From Candidatus Levybacteria bacterium RIFCSPHIGHO2_01_FULL_38_26 (GTDB lineage: Bacteria > Patescibacteriota > Microgenomatia > Levybacterales > UBA12049), in the NCBI GenBank assembly GCA_001782075.1, contig MFNO01000037.1:1-61434 (forward strand): DNA of 61,434 nucleotides, written 5' to 3'. The translations under genes were made by a program, and so were the position numbers. Of the stretch, positions 11,476 to 61,434 are shown in pieces. Within the stretch, counting starts at the first letter, position 1. Every line of letters begins with the position of its first letter. Under the pieces are notes generated by a model. That model was not told the origin of the DNA, made no database searches, and saw only the letters and a list, made by a program, of their open reading frames with translations.

Positions 11476-12387
11476 CTATATGTTTTTGTTAAGAAACTTG
11501 AGAACCTTTTCTTGATATTCTTGTCTGAGCTTTTCTGGCAATCCTCCATGAACGCCTTCCTCCTGGAAAAGGAACTCTGCTCTTGGGTTATTTTTTAAAG
11601 AATCTTTGATTCTAGTTGCGTTTTCAAATGGGATTACCTGGTCTTTTTTTGAATGAATAATAAGTATTGGAATTTGCAGGTTTTTTGCCGAAGCTTGCGG
11701 AGAAATTTCGCTTGGATAAACGCCGACAAAGATTTTAGCCCAAATTTTTGTCAGTGAAGATAAAGGATATTTAAATACAAACAGATTTTGATAGTATTCA
11801 TTTATCACAAGATCAAGATTGGCATAAGCGCTGTCCGAAACTACCGCATTTATTCTTGTATCCTTGGCCGCAGTCATGATCGCAACCGCGCCCCCTAAAG
11901 AAAATCCCATTATTCCTATTCTATCAAATCCCTGCCCGCCGGCAGGCAGGCTCCTTTTTTCCAGATAATCAAGCGCACTTGCAAGGTCTTTTTGTTCGTG
12001 GTATCCGACTGTGGTCATAGAACCTTCCGAATCTCCAAAATAGCGAAAGTCAAAAAATAAAAGATTAAAATCGTCGTGCAAAAATGATGCCCATCCTAAA
12101 ATGTTTGCCTTGTCGAAAGGATAACCGTGAAGAAGTATTATTGTCTTGTCCGAATTTTTTTCTGCCGGAACGAACCAGGCGGAAAGCCTGATATTATCGA
12201 TCGTGGTTAAATTTATGGCTTGAAAGCTCCATTCGAAGTCCTGAGGAGTTAAATTAGTTTTGTATTTTGGAGGATGGGTCGCCGACCAAAATCCATAAAG
12301 ACTAAAAACTATTATAAATAATGTAAAAAATAAAACAAACGGCAAAATCATTTTATATATTTTAGAGTTTTTAATCTTAAATTTCAT
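11476..12387 (-). CDS. membrane-anchored alpha/beta hydrolase (lipase/esterase-like)
   Basis: N-terminal TM helix, HGYP oxyanion-like region, nucleophile elbow GFSLGG. Confidence 0.75.
   Translation of the reverse strand: MKFKIKNSKIYKMILPFVLFFTLFIIVFSLYGFWSATHPPKYKTNLTPQDFEWSFQAINLTTIDNIRLSAWFVPAEKNSDKTIILLHGYPFDKANILGWASFLHDDFNLLFFDFRYFGDSEGSMTTVGYHEQKDLASALDYLEKRSLPAGGQGFDRIGIMGFSLGGAVAIMTAAKDTRINAVVSDSAYANLDLVINEYYQNLFVFKYPLSSLTKIWAKIFVGVYPSEISPQASAKNLQIPILIIHSKKDQVIPFENATRIKDSLKNNPRAEFLFQEEGVHGGLPEKLRQEYQEKVLKFLNKNI
11931..11950. repeat. 20-nt GC-rich near-palindrome CCTGCCCGCCGGCAGGCAGG inside the hydrolase CDS; it contains the 10-mer GGCGGGCAGG (reverse strand) shared with 25249-25258 and 61274-61283
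   Basis: Read directly. It encodes LPAGGQG in frame. CCTGCC/GGCAGG can form a hairpin. Confidence 0.7.
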
Positions 12388-13675: not shown

Positions 13676-14034
13676 TATTCTAGAATAGCAACAAATTGAG
13701 CAATAGTATAGGCGCCCTGATGGGTGATACTAAGGGCAGAATTTTGAGCTTTGAATTTTGCCTGCCCGCCGAATTGGAGGGAATTTTGAATTTGGACTTC
13801 AGGTGACCCATTTGATTTATAAGTTATAAGAATTTCGAGCCATGAATCTGTGGATAGTGACAGAGCTTTTATAACTGCCTCTTTGGCTGCAAAAATTCCT
13901 GCCAATCGAGTAGGATCGTTATTTATCAACTCTTCTTCAAAGTAAACACGGCGAAGGAAATTCTCTCCGCCATTTTTTAGCGATTTTTTAAAAAGTGGCA
14001 AATAAACCAAGTCAATTCCTGATCTAATTATCAT
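13675..14034 (-). CDS. acpS: holo-[acyl-carrier-protein] synthase (4'-phosphopantetheinyl transferase)
   Basis: N-terminus MIIRSGIDLV, FAAKEAVIKAL, and C-terminal LSITHQGAYTIA. ATGA overlap with the upstream gene. Confidence 0.8.
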   Translation of the reverse strand: MIIRSGIDLVYLPLFKKSLKNGGENFLRRVYFEEELINNDPTRLAGIFAAKEAVIKALSLSTDSWLEILITYKSNGSPEVQIQNSLQFGGQAKFKAQNSALSITHQGAYTIAQFVAILE

Positions 14035-24498: not shown

Positions 24499-25101
24499 TT
24501 AATTGTAAGGATTCCTTACTAAGCCCATTGATCCTGGCGGCCAGTAAATAAAAAACGATTTACCAATAATTAGTCTTCTATCAACAAAACCCCATTCTCT
24601 AGAATCTGAACTATTTAATCTATTGTCTCCCAGTACAAAAAATTCGTCTTTATTTGTTTTTACTTCTTGATTTTCTTTAATAAATGTTCCAGGTTTTGTC
24701 TGAATAGACGCGTTAAGGTATGAACTTTCATCAAGCAGTTTGCCATTAATATAAACATTTCCACTTTTTATTAATATAGTATCTCCAGGGATCCCGATTA
24801 CCCTTTTTATGAAATCCCTGTCTGGATTTGCCGGTGATTTAAATACTATTACGTCTCCAAGTTTAACATCTTCGAAGTGAAGCCCGATTATATTTGTAAT
24901 TACATACTCTTTGTCGTGAAAATTTGGATACATGGAATTGCCGTTGACCTGGAAGGGACGAAATAAAAAAACATAAATTACCAAGAATACAGCCGCGGCT
25001 AAAAGAAGAGTTTGGATAATATCAAGAAAGAATGAATAGATTTTGCGAAGTATGTCAAGAACCATGAATTGTATTCTCTTAAATTCTACAAGTTTTGTCA
25101 A
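24499..25101 (-). CDS. lepB: signal peptidase I
   Basis: GNSMYP (catalytic Ser), KRVIGIPGD (catalytic Lys), GDNRLNSSDSR. Confidence 0.9.
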   Translation of the reverse strand: MTKLVEFKRIQFMVLDILRKIYSFFLDIIQTLLLAAAVFLVIYVFLFRPFQVNGNSMYPNFHDKEYVITNIIGLHFEDVKLGDVIVFKSPANPDRDFIKRVIGIPGDTILIKSGNVYINGKLLDESSYLNASIQTKPGTFIKENQEVKTNKDEFFVLGDNRLNSSDSREWGFVDRRLIIGKSFFIYWPPGSMGLVRNPYN

Positions 25102-25123
25102 TGAGCTAGATTTATGCTAAGAT
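25095..25123 (+). promoter_or_regulatory. putative promoter for the tRNA-Thr/Val locus (TTGTCA-N17-TGcTAAGAT)
   Basis: -35 at 25095-25100, extended -10 at 25115-25123. The predicted start lies a few nt before 25134. Confidence 0.4.
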
Positions 25124-25153
25124 ATTTGAAATCGGACTCGTGGTTCAGTGGTA

Positions 25154-25256
25154 GACCCGCCTGCACTGGCCGATTGGCTCAGTTGGTTAGAGCGCTTCAT
25201 TCACATTGAAGAGGCCGGAGGTTCGAATCCTCCATCGGCCACAGTTATGGCGGGCA
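25154..25256 (+). other. intervening sequence in the tRNA-Thr D-loop: GA-CCCGCC-TGCACT-[tRNA-Val]-CAGTTAT-GGCGGG-CA
   Basis: A 6-bp GC clamp (25156-25161 with 25249-25254) encloses the nested tRNA. Confidence 0.6.
25168..25241 (+). tRNA. tRNA-Val(CAC), canonical 74-nt cloverleaf nested inside the tRNA-Thr gene
   Basis: GGCCGAT TG GCTC AGTTGGTTA GAGC G CTTCA TTCACAT TGAAG AGGCC GGAGG TTCGAAT CCTCC ATCGGCC A. Confidence 0.9.
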
Positions 25257-25313
25257 GGACGTCTCGTTCGTATCGAGAAGGTCGAAGGTTCGATCCCTTC
25301 CGAGTCCACCGCG

Positions 25314-26357
25314 ATGACAATTCTTTTTTTCTCCCGTCTATTTCTTCCTCATATTGGTGGAGTTGAAAAACATGTATTTGAATTGAGTAAAGAATTAATA
25401 AAAAAAAATTACAAAATTATAGTCGTGACAGAAAAAAATCAGTTGAATAACTCGAGTGCTAAAATCACGGGTGAAATAGACGGCATAAAAATTTACAGAA
25501 TCGATGCGGGCGGTGAAAATGTTTTTAAAAAGTTTAGGGTTTGGTGGTGGTTATGGCAGAATAGACACTTAATTGAAAATGCAGACATTGTTCATTGTCA
25601 TGACGTGTTTTTTTGGTATATCCCTTTTCGATTTTTATATCCCAACAAGCCAATCTACACAACTTTTCATGGATACGAAACAAAATTTCCTCCGTCAAAA
25701 AAAGCTATTTTTATACGTAAGGTCAGTGAGAGACTGTCTTGGGGAAATATTTGCGTTGGAGATTATATCAAAAAATGGTATGGAACAAGGCCTAACTTAG
25801 TAACTTACGGCGGAGTTGATATCGGAAAAATCCGAAATTTGAATATCGAAATTCGAAACAAAATCAAAATTTTATTTATCGGAAGATTAGAAAAAGATAC
25901 GGGAGTTTTAAATTATTTAAAGGTTTTGGAACTAATGAGAAAGAGAAAAATTAAATTTGATCTTGAAGCGTGTGGAGATGGTAGTTTGAAAAAAATGGTT
26001 GAGGACTATGGGAAAGTGAATGGATTCGTAGATGATTTAAACACCTACATAGAGAAAGCAGATATTGTTTTTGCGAGTTCATACTTGTCAATTCTTGAGG
26101 CAATGGCTGCCAAAAAACTGGTTTTTTGTGCATATGATAACAAGCTTAAAGAGGATTATCTCAAAATGTCGCCTTTTGCAAAATGGATTGTGATCGAAGA
26201 TTCTTCGACTAAACTTTCCGATAAAGTTTGGTATTTTATACAGCATAAAAAAGAGAAAGATAAAGTTGTCCATGATGCTTATGAATGGGTAAAAAAGCAG
26301 ACATGGAAGAAAGTGGCAGATCGTTATATTAATCTTTGGGGGCTGCAAATCTTATGA
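25314..26357 (+). CDS. GT4-family (GT-B) glycosyltransferase
   Basis: N-terminus MTILFFSRLFLPHIGGVEKH is typical of GT4. The ORF-track N-terminal extension from 25206 is a read-through of the tRNA genes. Confidence 0.85.
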   Translation: MTILFFSRLFLPHIGGVEKHVFELSKELIKKNYKIIVVTEKNQLNNSSAKITGEIDGIKIYRIDAGGENVFKKFRVWWWLWQNRHLIENADIVHCHDVFFWYIPFRFLYPNKPIYTTFHGYETKFPPSKKAIFIRKVSERLSWGNICVGDYIKKWYGTRPNLVTYGGVDIGKIRNLNIEIRNKIKILFIGRLEKDTGVLNYLKVLELMRKRKIKFDLEACGDGSLKKMVEDYGKVNGFVDDLNTYIEKADIVFASSYLSILEAMAAKKLVFCAYDNKLKEDYLKMSPFAKWIVIEDSSTKLSDKVWYFIQHKKEKDKVVHDAYEWVKKQTWKKVADRYINLWGLQIL

Positions 26358-38356: not shown

Positions 38357-38359
38357 CGG

Positions 38360-38431
38360 AGCCAACGGTGAGAATCGAACTCACGGCCTAGTGTTTACGA
38401 AACACTTGCTCTTCCACTGAGCTACGTTGGC
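38360..38431 (-). tRNA. tRNA-Thr(CGU), canonical 72 nt
   Basis: Reverse complement reads GCCAACG TA GCTC AGTGGAA GAGC A AGTGT TTCGTAA ACACT AGGCC GTGAG TTCGATT CTCAC CGTTGGC T. Confidence 0.9.
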
Positions 38432-60324: not shown

Positions 60325-60918
60325 ATGGCAAGAGAAAAAGCTGTCAAATTAGAAGAGGAAACAAAAAGAAGCTGGTGGGGTGAATCATATACCAGTTTGA
60401 TACTAGGCATGATAGTTGTTGGCGTAATTGGGTTTATTATTTTCTCATTAATAAATAGACAATCTCAAGACACAAGTTCTGTAACAGATCAGACTTCAGA
60501 CGAAGCAGCAGATGGAACAGAAGCTGGGCAAAAAACATATACAGTTGTGGCTGGCGATGACCTTTGGACTATTTCTGAGAAAATGTACAAGTCGGGATAT
60601 AATTGGGTAGATATTGCAAGCGCAAACAAGCTAGAAAACCCAAATATTTTGGAAGTGGGAGCTAAACTTACGATCCCAGATGTTGAACCAAAAATAGTTA
60701 CAGTCGTACAACCGACTACAACACCAACACCAGCATCAGCACCAGTAGCAAACGAGATCAAGGGTAACGAATATACTGTTGTTTCTGGAGATAATCTGTG
60801 GGATATATCAGTAAGGGCATATAGTGATGGATTCAAGTGGGTTGAAATTGCAAAGGCAAACAATCTGGCGAATCCAGACCTGATATTTTCCGGCAACAAA
60901 CTCACGATTCCAAGGTAA
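60325..60918 (+). CDS. membrane-anchored protein with two LysM peptidoglycan-binding domains
   Basis: TM helix, then two copies of YTVV.GD.LW.IS...Y..G..W..IA.AN.L.NP..I..G.KLTIP. GGAGG RBS. Confidence 0.85.
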   Translation: MAREKAVKLEEETKRSWWGESYTSLILGMIVVGVIGFIIFSLINRQSQDTSSVTDQTSDEAADGTEAGQKTYTVVAGDDLWTISEKMYKSGYNWVDIASANKLENPNILEVGAKLTIPDVEPKIVTVVQPTTTPTPASAPVANEIKGNEYTVVSGDNLWDISVRAYSDGFKWVEIAKANNLANPDLIFSGNKLTIPR

Positions 60919-60982
60919 AAGTAGTAGACGGAATAGGCTTATGTAGCAAATTAGTCCGTGTTGTATAATGTACATTATACAC

Positions 60983-61054
60983 GCGGGTGTGGTTTAGTGG
61001 TAAAATGCTTCCTTCCCAAGGAAGAGATTGTGGGTTCGATTCCCATCACCCGCT
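60983..61054 (+). tRNA. tRNA-Gly(CCC)
   Basis: GCGGGTG TG GTTT AGTGGTA AAAT G CTTCC TTCCCAA GGAAG AGATT GTGGG TTCGATT CCCAT CACCCGC T. Confidence 0.9.
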
Positions 61055-61240
61055 CTTTTTTGTTTCACAAAAAAAGCGAGGCTCGCCTCTGAGGACACAA
61101 GGATCATTTGGTATGCTTATTTTACCACTTCTTGGTATACTTAAGCCATGAAATTAACCAATTATCCAAAAGTTGATGAAGCCATAAAGAAATTGATACT
61201 TTTGAGATAGTCTTTAAAATCTTCGAGTCATCGTGCTCAA

Positions 61241-61283
61241 ACCCGCCTGCAAGCGCCTGGAACGCTAGCGACTGGCGGGCAGG
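61241..61283. repeat. GC-rich bipartite element ACCCGCCTGCA-N21-TGGCGGGCAGG, with both 11-nt arms identical to the flanks of the tRNA-Thr D-loop insert
   Basis: 61241-61251 equals 25155-25165, and 61273-61283 equals 25248-25258. An inner hairpin is AGCG CCTGGAA CGCT. Confidence 0.8.
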
Positions 61284-61315
61284 TAGGTCCGAGCTGATTA
61301 CGGTAACCCGCTCAT

Positions 61316-61434
61316 TTATCTTTTCTCAAAAAGCACGGTTTCTCCTCTGAGGACTTTTTGGACATCTGTCTCAGTAACCGATCTAGAAGTTTTTACGGAA
61401 GTTACTCTAACAGCAGGGTTTTCTCCGATTGCTT
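61316..61434 (-). CDS. 3' end of an unidentified CDS running off the window (...AIGENPAVRVTSVKTSRSVTETDVQKVLRGETVLFEKR*)
   Basis: Open frame to the window edge with a TAA stop at 61316-61318. No family recognised. Confidence 0.35.
   Translation of the reverse strand, partial: AIGENPAVRVTSVKTSRSVTETDVQKVLRGETVLFEKR

Follow-up and report, generated by a model that had tools for sequence, protein, structure and literature searches.

Our analysis of a 61,434-nt stretch of DNA from Candidatus Levybacteria bacterium RIFCSPHIGHO2_01_FULL_38_26 (contig MFNO01000037.1, positions 1 to 61,434; hereafter the window) points to a mobile, non-autonomous, G+C-rich stem-loop element that is repeated across AT-rich genomes of Patescibacteria. 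The 43 nt at 61241-61283 would be a solo copy of this element, and a second copy, near position 25155, encloses a complete tRNA gene and itself lies inside another tRNA gene. We favor this reading with modest confidence. We directly observed a family of such elements, the contexts in which they sit, the exact boundaries of the unit, filled and empty sites, read-through of coding copies in frame, and intact innermost tRNAs.

Two copies of the element in the window

The solo copy consists of two arms around a short interior:

61241-61283, plus strand: solo copy of the element without cargo (left arm 61241-61251, interior 61252-61272, right arm 61273-61283)

The left arm, ACCCGCCTGCA, occurs at 25155-25165 and 61241-61251, and the right arm, TGGCGGGCAGG, at 25248-25258 and 61273-61283. 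A first-pass annotation, made from the letters of the window, had called these 11-nt arms identical between the two loci, and all four matches are exact. At 61241 the arms enclose 21 nt, AGCGCCTGGAACGCTAGCGAC, in which AGCG and CGCT can pair, as that annotation proposed; at 25155-25258 they enclose 82 nt holding a tRNA-Val(CAC). The solo copy has a folding energy of -20.3 kcal/mol on the plus strand and -21.3 kcal/mol on the minus strand, and the identical 43-mer is present in three independent contigs or assemblies. Its interior resembles a 26-nt interior type (GCCTGA..GCGA) found at L011, L035, L070 and L089, where L-numbers denote loci or contigs from public metagenomes and genomes and L001 is an extension of the window.

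The end motifs of the element are CCCGCCTG on the left and CGGGCAGG on the right. They pair as CC/GG plus GCCUGC/GCGGGC in plus-strand RNA, as GCCCGCC/GGCGGGU on the other strand, and alternatively as CCTGC/GCAGG; several registers exist because the arms derive from a single 8-nt period and are shifted in phase along it. Compared end to end, the left arm ACCCGCCTGCA matches the reverse complement of the right arm (CCTGCCCGCCA) at 5 of 11 positions, and the inverted part is an internal 6-bp core only (CCCGCC/GGCGGG). Three copies of the 10-mer GGCGGGCAGG had been noted in the first pass and held to exceed chance; there are in fact four exact copies, the extra one at 13761-13770 on the minus strand, and seven matches at up to one mismatch, against an expected 0.69. 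None of 100 dinucleotide-preserving shuffles of the window reached seven, which bears out the claim of excess.

At the second locus, one tRNA gene interrupts another:

25095-25123, plus strand: promoter-like TTGTCA-17-TAAGAT, predicted to drive the nested tRNA transcript
25134-25155, plus strand: 5' part of the host tRNA (acceptor strand GGACTCG, D stem, D loop); the spliced sequence is called as tRNA-Thr(CGT)
25156-25258, plus strand: element with tRNA cargo, a 103-nt unit CCCGCCTGCA-ct-[tRNA-Val]-cagtta-TGGCGGGCAGG, its ends set by alignment with L103 and L139
25168-25241, plus strand: tRNA-Val(CAC), intact cargo and sole tRNA-Val of the window (ARAGORN; Rfam tRNA, 73.1 bits)
25259-25308, plus strand: 3' part of the host tRNA (rest of the D stem, anticodon arm with CGT, T arm, acceptor strand CGAGTCC, discriminator A)
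38358-38431, minus strand: second tRNA-Thr(CGT), intact and unrelated to the host (ARAGORN, Rfam)

Deletion of 103 nt (25156-25258 or 25155-25257) yields a tRNA-Thr(CGT) that ARAGORN accepts, in agreement with the first-pass view of a tRNA-Val inside a tRNA-Thr. Removal of 25156-25258 joins GGACTCGTGGTTCAGTGGTAGA to ACGTCTCG and leaves a 7-bp acceptor stem and a perfect GTTC/GAAC D stem; the restored D stem places the insert in the D-stem 3' strand, at 22/23 (or 23/24), so that the description of a D-loop insert was right about the D arm but not strictly about the loop. In the minimum-energy fold of the 182-nt nest (-72.7 kcal/mol, z = -2.95) the two host acceptor strands pair with each other, as do the arms, and the inner cloverleaf forms. 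The left junction recurs in six independent assemblies and the right junction in three (ENA, NCBI, Logan), so the nest is no chimera or assembly artifact. Given the second intact tRNA-Thr(CGT), the interrupted host is dispensable. ARAGORN's intron mode miscalled the window nest as a tRNA-Ala, and several of its other 'introns' (L107, L055, L143) were rejected as an intact tRNA plus a partial duplicate. A mechanical 383-aa open reading frame (ORF) at 25206-26357 runs through the tRNA region into a glycosyltransferase gene, whose start we take as the ATG at 25314 (347 aa); several database homologs of 380-398 aa may reflect the same over-extension.

The family and its tRNA nests

We scanned metagenome contigs for exact arms spaced 22-82 nt apart, and named genomes (one per species) for exact-arm gaps of 42-102 nt. 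By our estimate, exact arms are expected by chance about 1e-12 times per base in DNA of 40% G+C. The metagenome scan returned 83 loci, about half of them G+C-rich and resembling chance matches inside genes, and matches in G+C-rich genomes likewise resemble chance; some 35 elements in AT-rich contigs are clearly akin to one another, and the genome scan added about a dozen more. These results uphold the earlier proposal of a family of small G+C-rich hairpins that can carry cargo and occupy tRNA, coding and intergenic sites. Named hosts are two Levybacteria, one Berkelbacteria, another member of the Patescibacteria and one WOR-3 genome, plus four AT-rich contigs filed under 'Gammaproteobacteria'. 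Those four (L096, L103, L117, L139; 36-41% G+C, labeled uncultured Gammaproteobacteria) look like misbinned Patescibacteria contigs. Two matches in viral contigs were set aside as chance, lying in G+C-rich DNA with no tRNA.

The interiors fall into three types: one of 24 nt, (a/c)tTGCCTTCCCGA-loop-TCGGGA; one of 26 nt, tcGCCTGAGCGAGCTCATGCTCGCGA; and a multi-hairpin type in which further ACCCGCCTGCC and GCGGGCAGG modules are nested. Members form intergenic hairpins, sit in the loops of larger hairpins (L015, L036, L114), occupy a 23S-5S rRNA spacer (L050:568-645), and lie just upstream of small GIY-YIG genes (L030, L058, L108). Fold z-scores are -4.0 for L015 and -2.5 for L036. Rfam searches of the window, L001 and 20 element-carrying loci, at E up to 1-5, matched only tRNA and rRNA.

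Other copies lie in frame within conserved protein genes, namely rsmH (L069, ..TRLQMPPATTSKMLADGGQ..), tsaD (L051), an RluA-like gene (L060), an ORF in L017 and murB (L122). In these genes one long stop-free frame spans the element and the conserved motifs on either side, with the peptide T-R-L-Q ... G-G-Q. Since coding copies measure 46, 58 or 85 nt, none a multiple of three, arm-to-arm removal would break the frame, and the copies are therefore translated rather than excised. Two related motifs lie in window genes:

11930-11951, minus strand: G+C-rich near-palindrome CCCTGCCCGCCGGCAGGCAGGC, in frame in an alpha/beta hydrolase gene (LPAGGQG)
13760-13770, minus strand: half-site GCCTGCCCGCC with AT-rich, aaattYaaa-like flanks, in frame in a 4'-phosphopantetheinyl transferase gene (LQFGGQAKF)

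The first-pass annotation had counted the 11931 copy as a family member. It is indeed a near-palindrome in the hydrolase frame, but it fits a sister motif, CCTGCCNGCCGGCAGGCAGG, which also occurs beside two-arm elements in L020 and L032, and is not a full two-arm member. The half-site at 13760-13770 is possibly a remnant. AT-rich short tandem repeats (aaattacaaatt, ttagaaattagaaatt, atatacgaaat) flank many copies in a roughly mirrored way (L069, L032, L020, L028, L077 and window 13740-13800), and the full inserted unit may thus exceed the G+C-rich core.

Beyond the window, the scans found six more places with arms around a tRNA inside another tRNA gene. The cargo is always intact, as at these five loci:

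L103: cargo Val-CAC, host Val-CAC, position 37/38, arms oriented as in the window
L139: cargo Val-CAC, host Val-CAC, position 37/38, arms oriented as in the window
L133 (shares a contig with L048): cargo Thr-CGT, host Thr-CGT, position 35/36, arms opposite to the window
L096: cargo Thr-CGT, host Thr-CGT, position 35/36, arms opposite to the window
L107: cargo Val-GAC, damaged host, anticodon loop, arms opposite to the window

Cargo and host anticodons agree in L103, L139, L133, L096 and L144, and cargo and host are always co-oriented, whereas the arms take either orientation. L103 is syntenic with the window (ParB, LepB, nest, GT4; LepB 55% identical) and holds a 284-nt triple nest (L103:6804-7087, minus strand), with an outer tRNA around a middle tRNA-Val(CAC) around an inner tRNA-Val(CAC). 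Both of its interruptions are at 37/38, and its outer arms, CCTGCCCG...CAGGCGGG, are the same end motifs reversed. The unit (A)CCCGCCTGCA-ct-tRNA-Val-cagtta-TGGCGGGCAGG, including the linkers ct and cagtta, is common to L103 and the window. Among the window, L103 and L139, which share (A)CCCGCC...GGGCAGG, similarity starts and stops exactly at the arms and the flanks differ; moreover, 14 host bases that stand left of the unit in L103 stand right of it in the window. The same unit has therefore come to lie at two different sites, 22/23 in the window and 37/38 in L103 and L139.

Orthologous tRNA loci with the same promoter, TTGTCAA-N17-TAAGAT, beside the signal peptidase gene (L091, L103, L143-L146, L158-L161) display every stage:

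L091, L146: one plain outer-type tRNA-Val
L158, L159: one plain middle-type tRNA-Val, uninterrupted (empty site)
L144, L145, L160: middle type intact within decayed outer-type halves
L161: signal peptidase protein as in L160, no relic
L103: triple nest
L143: a fragment, then a GIY-YIG gene, an inner-type tRNA-Val and a damaged middle type

The comparison of empty and filled sites suggested in the first pass is thus available: the host tRNA-Val is uninterrupted in L158 and L159 and filled in L103 and L139. L160 and L161 encode identical LepB proteins, yet L160 has an arm remnant, CAAAGTCCAGTCAAGCAGG, and a decayed outer 3' half after its tRNA-Val, and L161 has neither, a presence/absence polymorphism at near-strain level. 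The innermost tRNA is intact in every nest. Outer hosts show decay of the anticodon (L103, CAC to CAT, where the ortholog in L091 and L146 is Val-CAC), of the stems (L144), or loss of a whole half (L145, and L091, where only a lone 3' fragment remains); the hosts in L096 and L107 carry additional insertions. Intact innermost and decayed outer tRNAs are the pattern expected of serial invasion and replacement, which argues that the hosts are relics. Two side observations concern this locus. Many short-read contigs from this organism and its relatives (L152-L155, L158, L159) stop within or just past it, so it seems to break assemblies. L143:1781-2432 (minus strand) holds two copies of a D-arm segment, each with a different AT-rich hairpin bounded by ACCCG...CGGGT in a tRNA-Val-like D loop, and these look like a second, shorter kind of loop insert.

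Proposed mechanism and alternatives

We infer that the element moves as DNA. Its two ends would pair in more than one register to form a hairpin on either strand, with a variable apical part (anything from a few bases or additional hairpins to an entire tRNA gene) that tolerates any cargo. Insertion would be precise, in either orientation and without target duplication, with a preference for the loops of existing hairpins. In protein genes, copies would survive only where they are read through in frame. In a tRNA gene, insertion would kill the host and be tolerated if the cargo tRNA replaces the lost function or the host is redundant. The nest at 25134-25308 fits this: its host tRNA-Thr(CGT) is redundant, and the locus has no tRNA-Val other than the cargo. 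The cargo would use the host promoter, would be held apart from the host halves by the arm helix, and would presumably be freed by RNase P and 3' trimming enzymes. Repeated rounds would produce nests whose outer halves decay around a single working tRNA, the innermost. Where cargo and host share an anticodon, selection may have kept only insertions that replace the lost function in a genome with single-copy tRNAs, or a nuclease may target that tRNA gene.

Several observations weigh against this reading. The element has no strict inverted terminal repeats, no target duplication and no conserved target sequence; its flanks read GGTAG|..|ACGTC at 25155, CTCAA|..|TAGGT at 61241 and TTCAC|..|TCCGA in L103, with no direct repeat. 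This genome yielded two full copies only, in about 71 kb. In the window the element has no linked transposase, recombinase or nuclease, and tblastn at 1e-4 found no GIY-YIG gene in its 61 kb. The arms are identical at 22 of 22 positions between genomes whose cargo tRNAs share 82-86% identity, a comparison biased by the matches having been found by requiring exact arms. A dead scar should be less conserved than this. Part of the identity comes from that bias, and the remainder implies that the ends are under selection or evolve in concert. Perfect cloverleaves are still formed by the window's host halves and by both L103 hosts, which would fit a recent insertion and equally a functional spliced host.

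We also entertain, tentatively, that the nests reveal a previously undescribed form of tRNA-gene interruption and re-use in Patescibacteria. Either the arms would be the hallmark of a new type of bacterial intervening sequence, one excised from tRNA precursors, with all nested tRNAs expressed from one transcript, or tRNA mini-cassettes would home into and replace tRNA genes by way of GIY-YIG nucleases. The latter, if true, would amount to a gene-replacement drive on the translation apparatus of ultra-small bacteria. A literature search turned up no account of the motif, nor of tRNA genes nested in one another in bacteria, and there is a real chance that the tRNA side of the element is something new.

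A homing site, or an integron-like one, is the alternative we take most seriously, though we think it unlikely. The arms would be the halves of a recombination or homing site, conserved as a recognition sequence, and solo copies would be empty sites; a nuclease or recombinase would open the hairpin, and a cassette (a tRNA, or a nuclease plus a tRNA) would be copied in. In keeping with this, the arms stay constant and the cargo changes (Val-CAC, Val-GAC, Thr-CGT or hairpins only), and the L133 tRNA occupies the exact place of the 26-nt-type apical hairpin (..CCTGA-[ ]-GA-R). Small GIY-YIG genes (PF01541) adjoin tRNAs, relic halves or the hairpin element in L030, L058, L107, L143 and L051, at the following sites:

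L107:109-481 and L107:2193-2558 (minus)
L143:1996-2364
L058:4577-4896
L030:6492-6917

In L107, one gene lies between an intact tRNA-Gly and a 31-nt repeat of the tRNA-Gly 3' end, and another between a relic tRNA-Phe 5' half and an intact tRNA-Phe; in L058 and L030 the order is hairpin element, GIY-YIG gene, tRNA-Leu. A known GIY-YIG homing nuclease, SegB of phage T4, has a tRNA gene region as its site of action (PMC2330249). However, in L030, L058 and L108 the nuclease gene stands beside a complete hairpin and not between arms, in L143 and L107 the nuclease gene and tRNA occur without any arms, and the window has no such gene. A homing site would also leave the scatter of the hairpin over coding regions, tRNA loops and spacers unexplained. 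As the enzyme that moves the element, the small GIY-YIG nucleases are no more than candidates, a lead and not a result.

It is improbable that the solo hairpin has been co-opted as a terminator or RNA-stabilizing 3' stem-loop for a convergent 447-aa gene, a tRNA-Gly or both, a role that would be compatible with a mobile element. Ordinary bacterial genes (L21, L27, ParB, signal peptidase, LemA and PolX) are found in the window, which has about 37% G+C, and homologs of the window glycosyltransferase and signal peptidase are assigned to Candidatus Levybacteria or Patescibacteria. The surroundings of the solo copy are as follows:

60983-61055, plus strand: tRNA-Gly(CCC), intact (ARAGORN, Rfam), 185 nt upstream of the solo copy
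61193-61220, plus strand: predicted promoter-like TTGATA-16-TAAAAT (consensus matched at 10 of 12 positions), pointing into the solo copy from 20 nt upstream
61306-61354, plus strand: imperfect direct repeat of the tRNA-Gly 3' end and about 40 nt downstream (first copy 61048-61096)

The solo copy stands between the tRNA-Gly(CCC) and the stop codon (61316-61318) of the minus-strand 447-aa gene, which has no Pfam domains, and begins 32 nt past that stop, close to the 30 nt first estimated. On the minus strand its stem (-21.3 kcal/mol) is followed by TTT, and some relatives (L055, L070) are intergenic with T-rich tails. Yet a terminator scan of 60900-61434 on both strands found no terminator-like site, and the minus-strand tail reads TTTGAGC, which tells against the terminator role raised in the first pass. 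Moreover, the promoter-like site points into the element from the opposite side, and the same element occurs in coding regions and tRNAs, where termination would harm. The 447-aa gene has four distant homologs only, and the single usable contig among them is not syntenic with the solo-copy region.

The repeat at 61048-61096 and 61306-61354 takes in the final 8 nt of tRNA-Gly and some 40 nt beyond it (local alignment score 37; none of 2000 shuffles did as well), and the solo copy therefore sits between two tRNA 3'-end copies. Its second copy provides the final codons and stop of the 447-aa gene, and the layout recalls the L107 order of tRNA, insert and repeated tRNA 3' end. Three further ideas about this locus were rejected. 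Flank alignments suggesting a decayed copy of the tRNA locus were no better than shuffles; a solo copy inside a decayed tRNA-Gly body was not significant, only the 3' end and downstream repeat being real; and a degraded GIY-YIG gene beside the solo copy (a WYAYF..WYT reading) gave no Pfam signal in the translation of 61049-61240.

RNA-level splicing is likewise improbable. Here the hosts would be cut at the arm boundaries and religated by a bacterial tRNA splicing pathway, with all tRNAs of a nest functional; if hosts did mature in this way, protein-dependent splicing of tRNAs, to date a feature of archaea and eukaryotes alone, would extend to bacteria. In L103 (twice), L139 and L144 the element has entered at 37/38, where tRNA introns canonically lie, removal of the unit gives back perfect cloverleaves, and the arms are strongly conserved. 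The T stems of the L103 and L139 hosts differ by a compensatory pair (AGAGG/CCTCT versus ACAGG/CCTGT). By inspection, though, no bulge-helix-bulge can be drawn at the junctions of the window locus or the middle tRNA of L103: the 4 nt before each splice site are not complementary (TTCA/GGCA in L103), the arm helix puts both junctions on the same side, and the folds show nothing but an ordinary stem broken by internal loops. Rfam gave no match to an intron or ribozyme family, the arms occur in both orientations relative to the tRNA, and some insertions fall at 22/23 or 35/36. Copies in protein genes are not removed but translated, the cargo or another gene makes the hosts redundant, and outer hosts have decayed in L144, L145, L096 and L091.

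A single local duplication, or a chance match, has next to no probability as the origin of the two copies: the count of two full copies in about 71 kb of this genome would suit it, but the flanks of the 25155 and 61241 loci are not significantly similar (shuffle test), shuffles exclude chance, and the identical arms that we found in relatives, across many unrelated contexts and taxa, refute a one-off event.

The nests point to a turnover of tRNA genes in these streamlined genomes by invasion and replacement as well as by point mutation, and the element offers a conserved sequence tag for following genome change in unculturable organisms. There are also consequences for annotation: tRNA finders miss interrupted hosts, gene callers extend ORFs across the nest, and in-frame copies put odd peptides (TRLQ...GGQ) into conserved enzymes.

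Comparison with known systems

The first-pass annotation likened the family to miniature inverted-repeat transposable elements (MITEs). There are many dispersed copies and both filled and empty sites, but with 5 of 11 positions matching between the arms end to end there are no terminal inverted repeats, and no target-site duplication was found, so the label does not apply in its strict sense. Nor does the solo copy look like an intrinsic terminator: the stem is present, but no run of T directly follows it. No catalytic RNA family matched in Rfam, as a group I intron in a bacterial tRNA anticodon loop or a small self-cleaving ribozyme would require, and at 43-103 nt the inserts could not accommodate a group I core.

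Rickettsia palindromic elements (RPEs) are short palindromes in an AT-rich, reduced genome that lie between genes, in RNA genes, and in frame and translated within protein genes. Our element is likewise palindromic, occurs in AT-rich reduced genomes, and is found in intergenic, RNA-gene and in-frame coding positions; in-frame repeats of the RPE type are seen in rsmH, tsaD, L060, L017 and murB, and in the related motifs at 11930-11951 and 13760-13770. Unlike RPEs, it is much shorter (43-60 nt) and very G+C-rich, has two conserved end motifs, and may enclose a tRNA gene and nest in tRNA genes.

Repetitive extragenic palindromic (REP) sequences and the bacterial interspersed mosaic elements (BIMEs) are 20-40-nt imperfect palindromes with a conserved 5' GTAG, extragenic, and moved by REP-associated tyrosine transposases (RAYTs, Y1/HUH enzymes); we group hairpin elements derived from IS200/IS605 with them. 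The imperfect palindrome, the lack of target duplication, the hairpin logic and the many copies are all shared with our element. In contrast, it has no 5' GTAG and no conserved adjacent target tetranucleotide, and it is not confined to extragenic DNA, with copies in tRNA genes and in coding sequence. Among the window ORFs, which were not searched exhaustively, no RAYT or TnpA gene was seen.

Yeast mitochondrial GC clusters and byp elements are G+C-rich mobile hairpins in very AT-rich genomes, found in intergenic, rRNA and coding DNA. Our element, too, comprises G+C-rich hairpins that land in intergenic, rRNA-region and coding DNA of AT-rich genomes, although it belongs to another domain of life and differs in sequence, and its coding copies are translated rather than bypassed. 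We know of no tRNA cargo in GC clusters or byp elements.

Archaeal disrupted tRNA genes include bulge-helix-bulge introns at canonical and non-canonical positions as well as split and permuted tRNAs (PMC4090602, PMC3978253, PMC3218864). Like them, the tRNAs described here are broken at 37/38 and in the D arm, have G+C-rich complementary flanks, and may carry several interruptions per gene. They differ in being bacterial, in showing no bulge-helix-bulge on inspection, in having arms either way round and an insert that holds a complete tRNA, and in hosts that appear dead.

Classical rRNA intervening sequences are cut by RNase III. In the closest study that we found (PMC11270868), rRNA genes of the candidate phyla radiation (CPR) carry insertion sequences that include short ones without ORFs and GIY-YIG-encoding non-introns. 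The likeness to our element lies in the same organism group, in short, uncharacterized inserts placed at stem-loop tips or bases within genes for structural RNA, and in GIY-YIG genes within non-intron inserts. A word-start search of the main text of that study returned no 'tRNA', and its matching passages hold neither arms nor tRNA cargo. The systems part in that a tRNA cut in its anticodon loop cannot work as a fragmented rRNA can.

SegB of phage T4 is a free-standing GIY-YIG homing endonuclease in a tRNA gene cluster that promotes inheritance of its own tRNA region (PMC2330249). The nuclease-plus-tRNA modules of L030, L058, L107 and L143 resemble it, and a nuclease gene inside or beside the inserted DNA, as in a GIY-YIG homing cassette, is found only at these four loci and not in the window. 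No nuclease gene accompanies the window element, and SegB makes no nested tRNA genes and uses no G+C-rich arms.

Overall, the element departs from MITEs, REPs, archaeal introns, group I introns and intrinsic terminators in the features that define them, and by analogy appears to work like Rickettsia palindromic repeats, REP elements and mitochondrial GC clusters.

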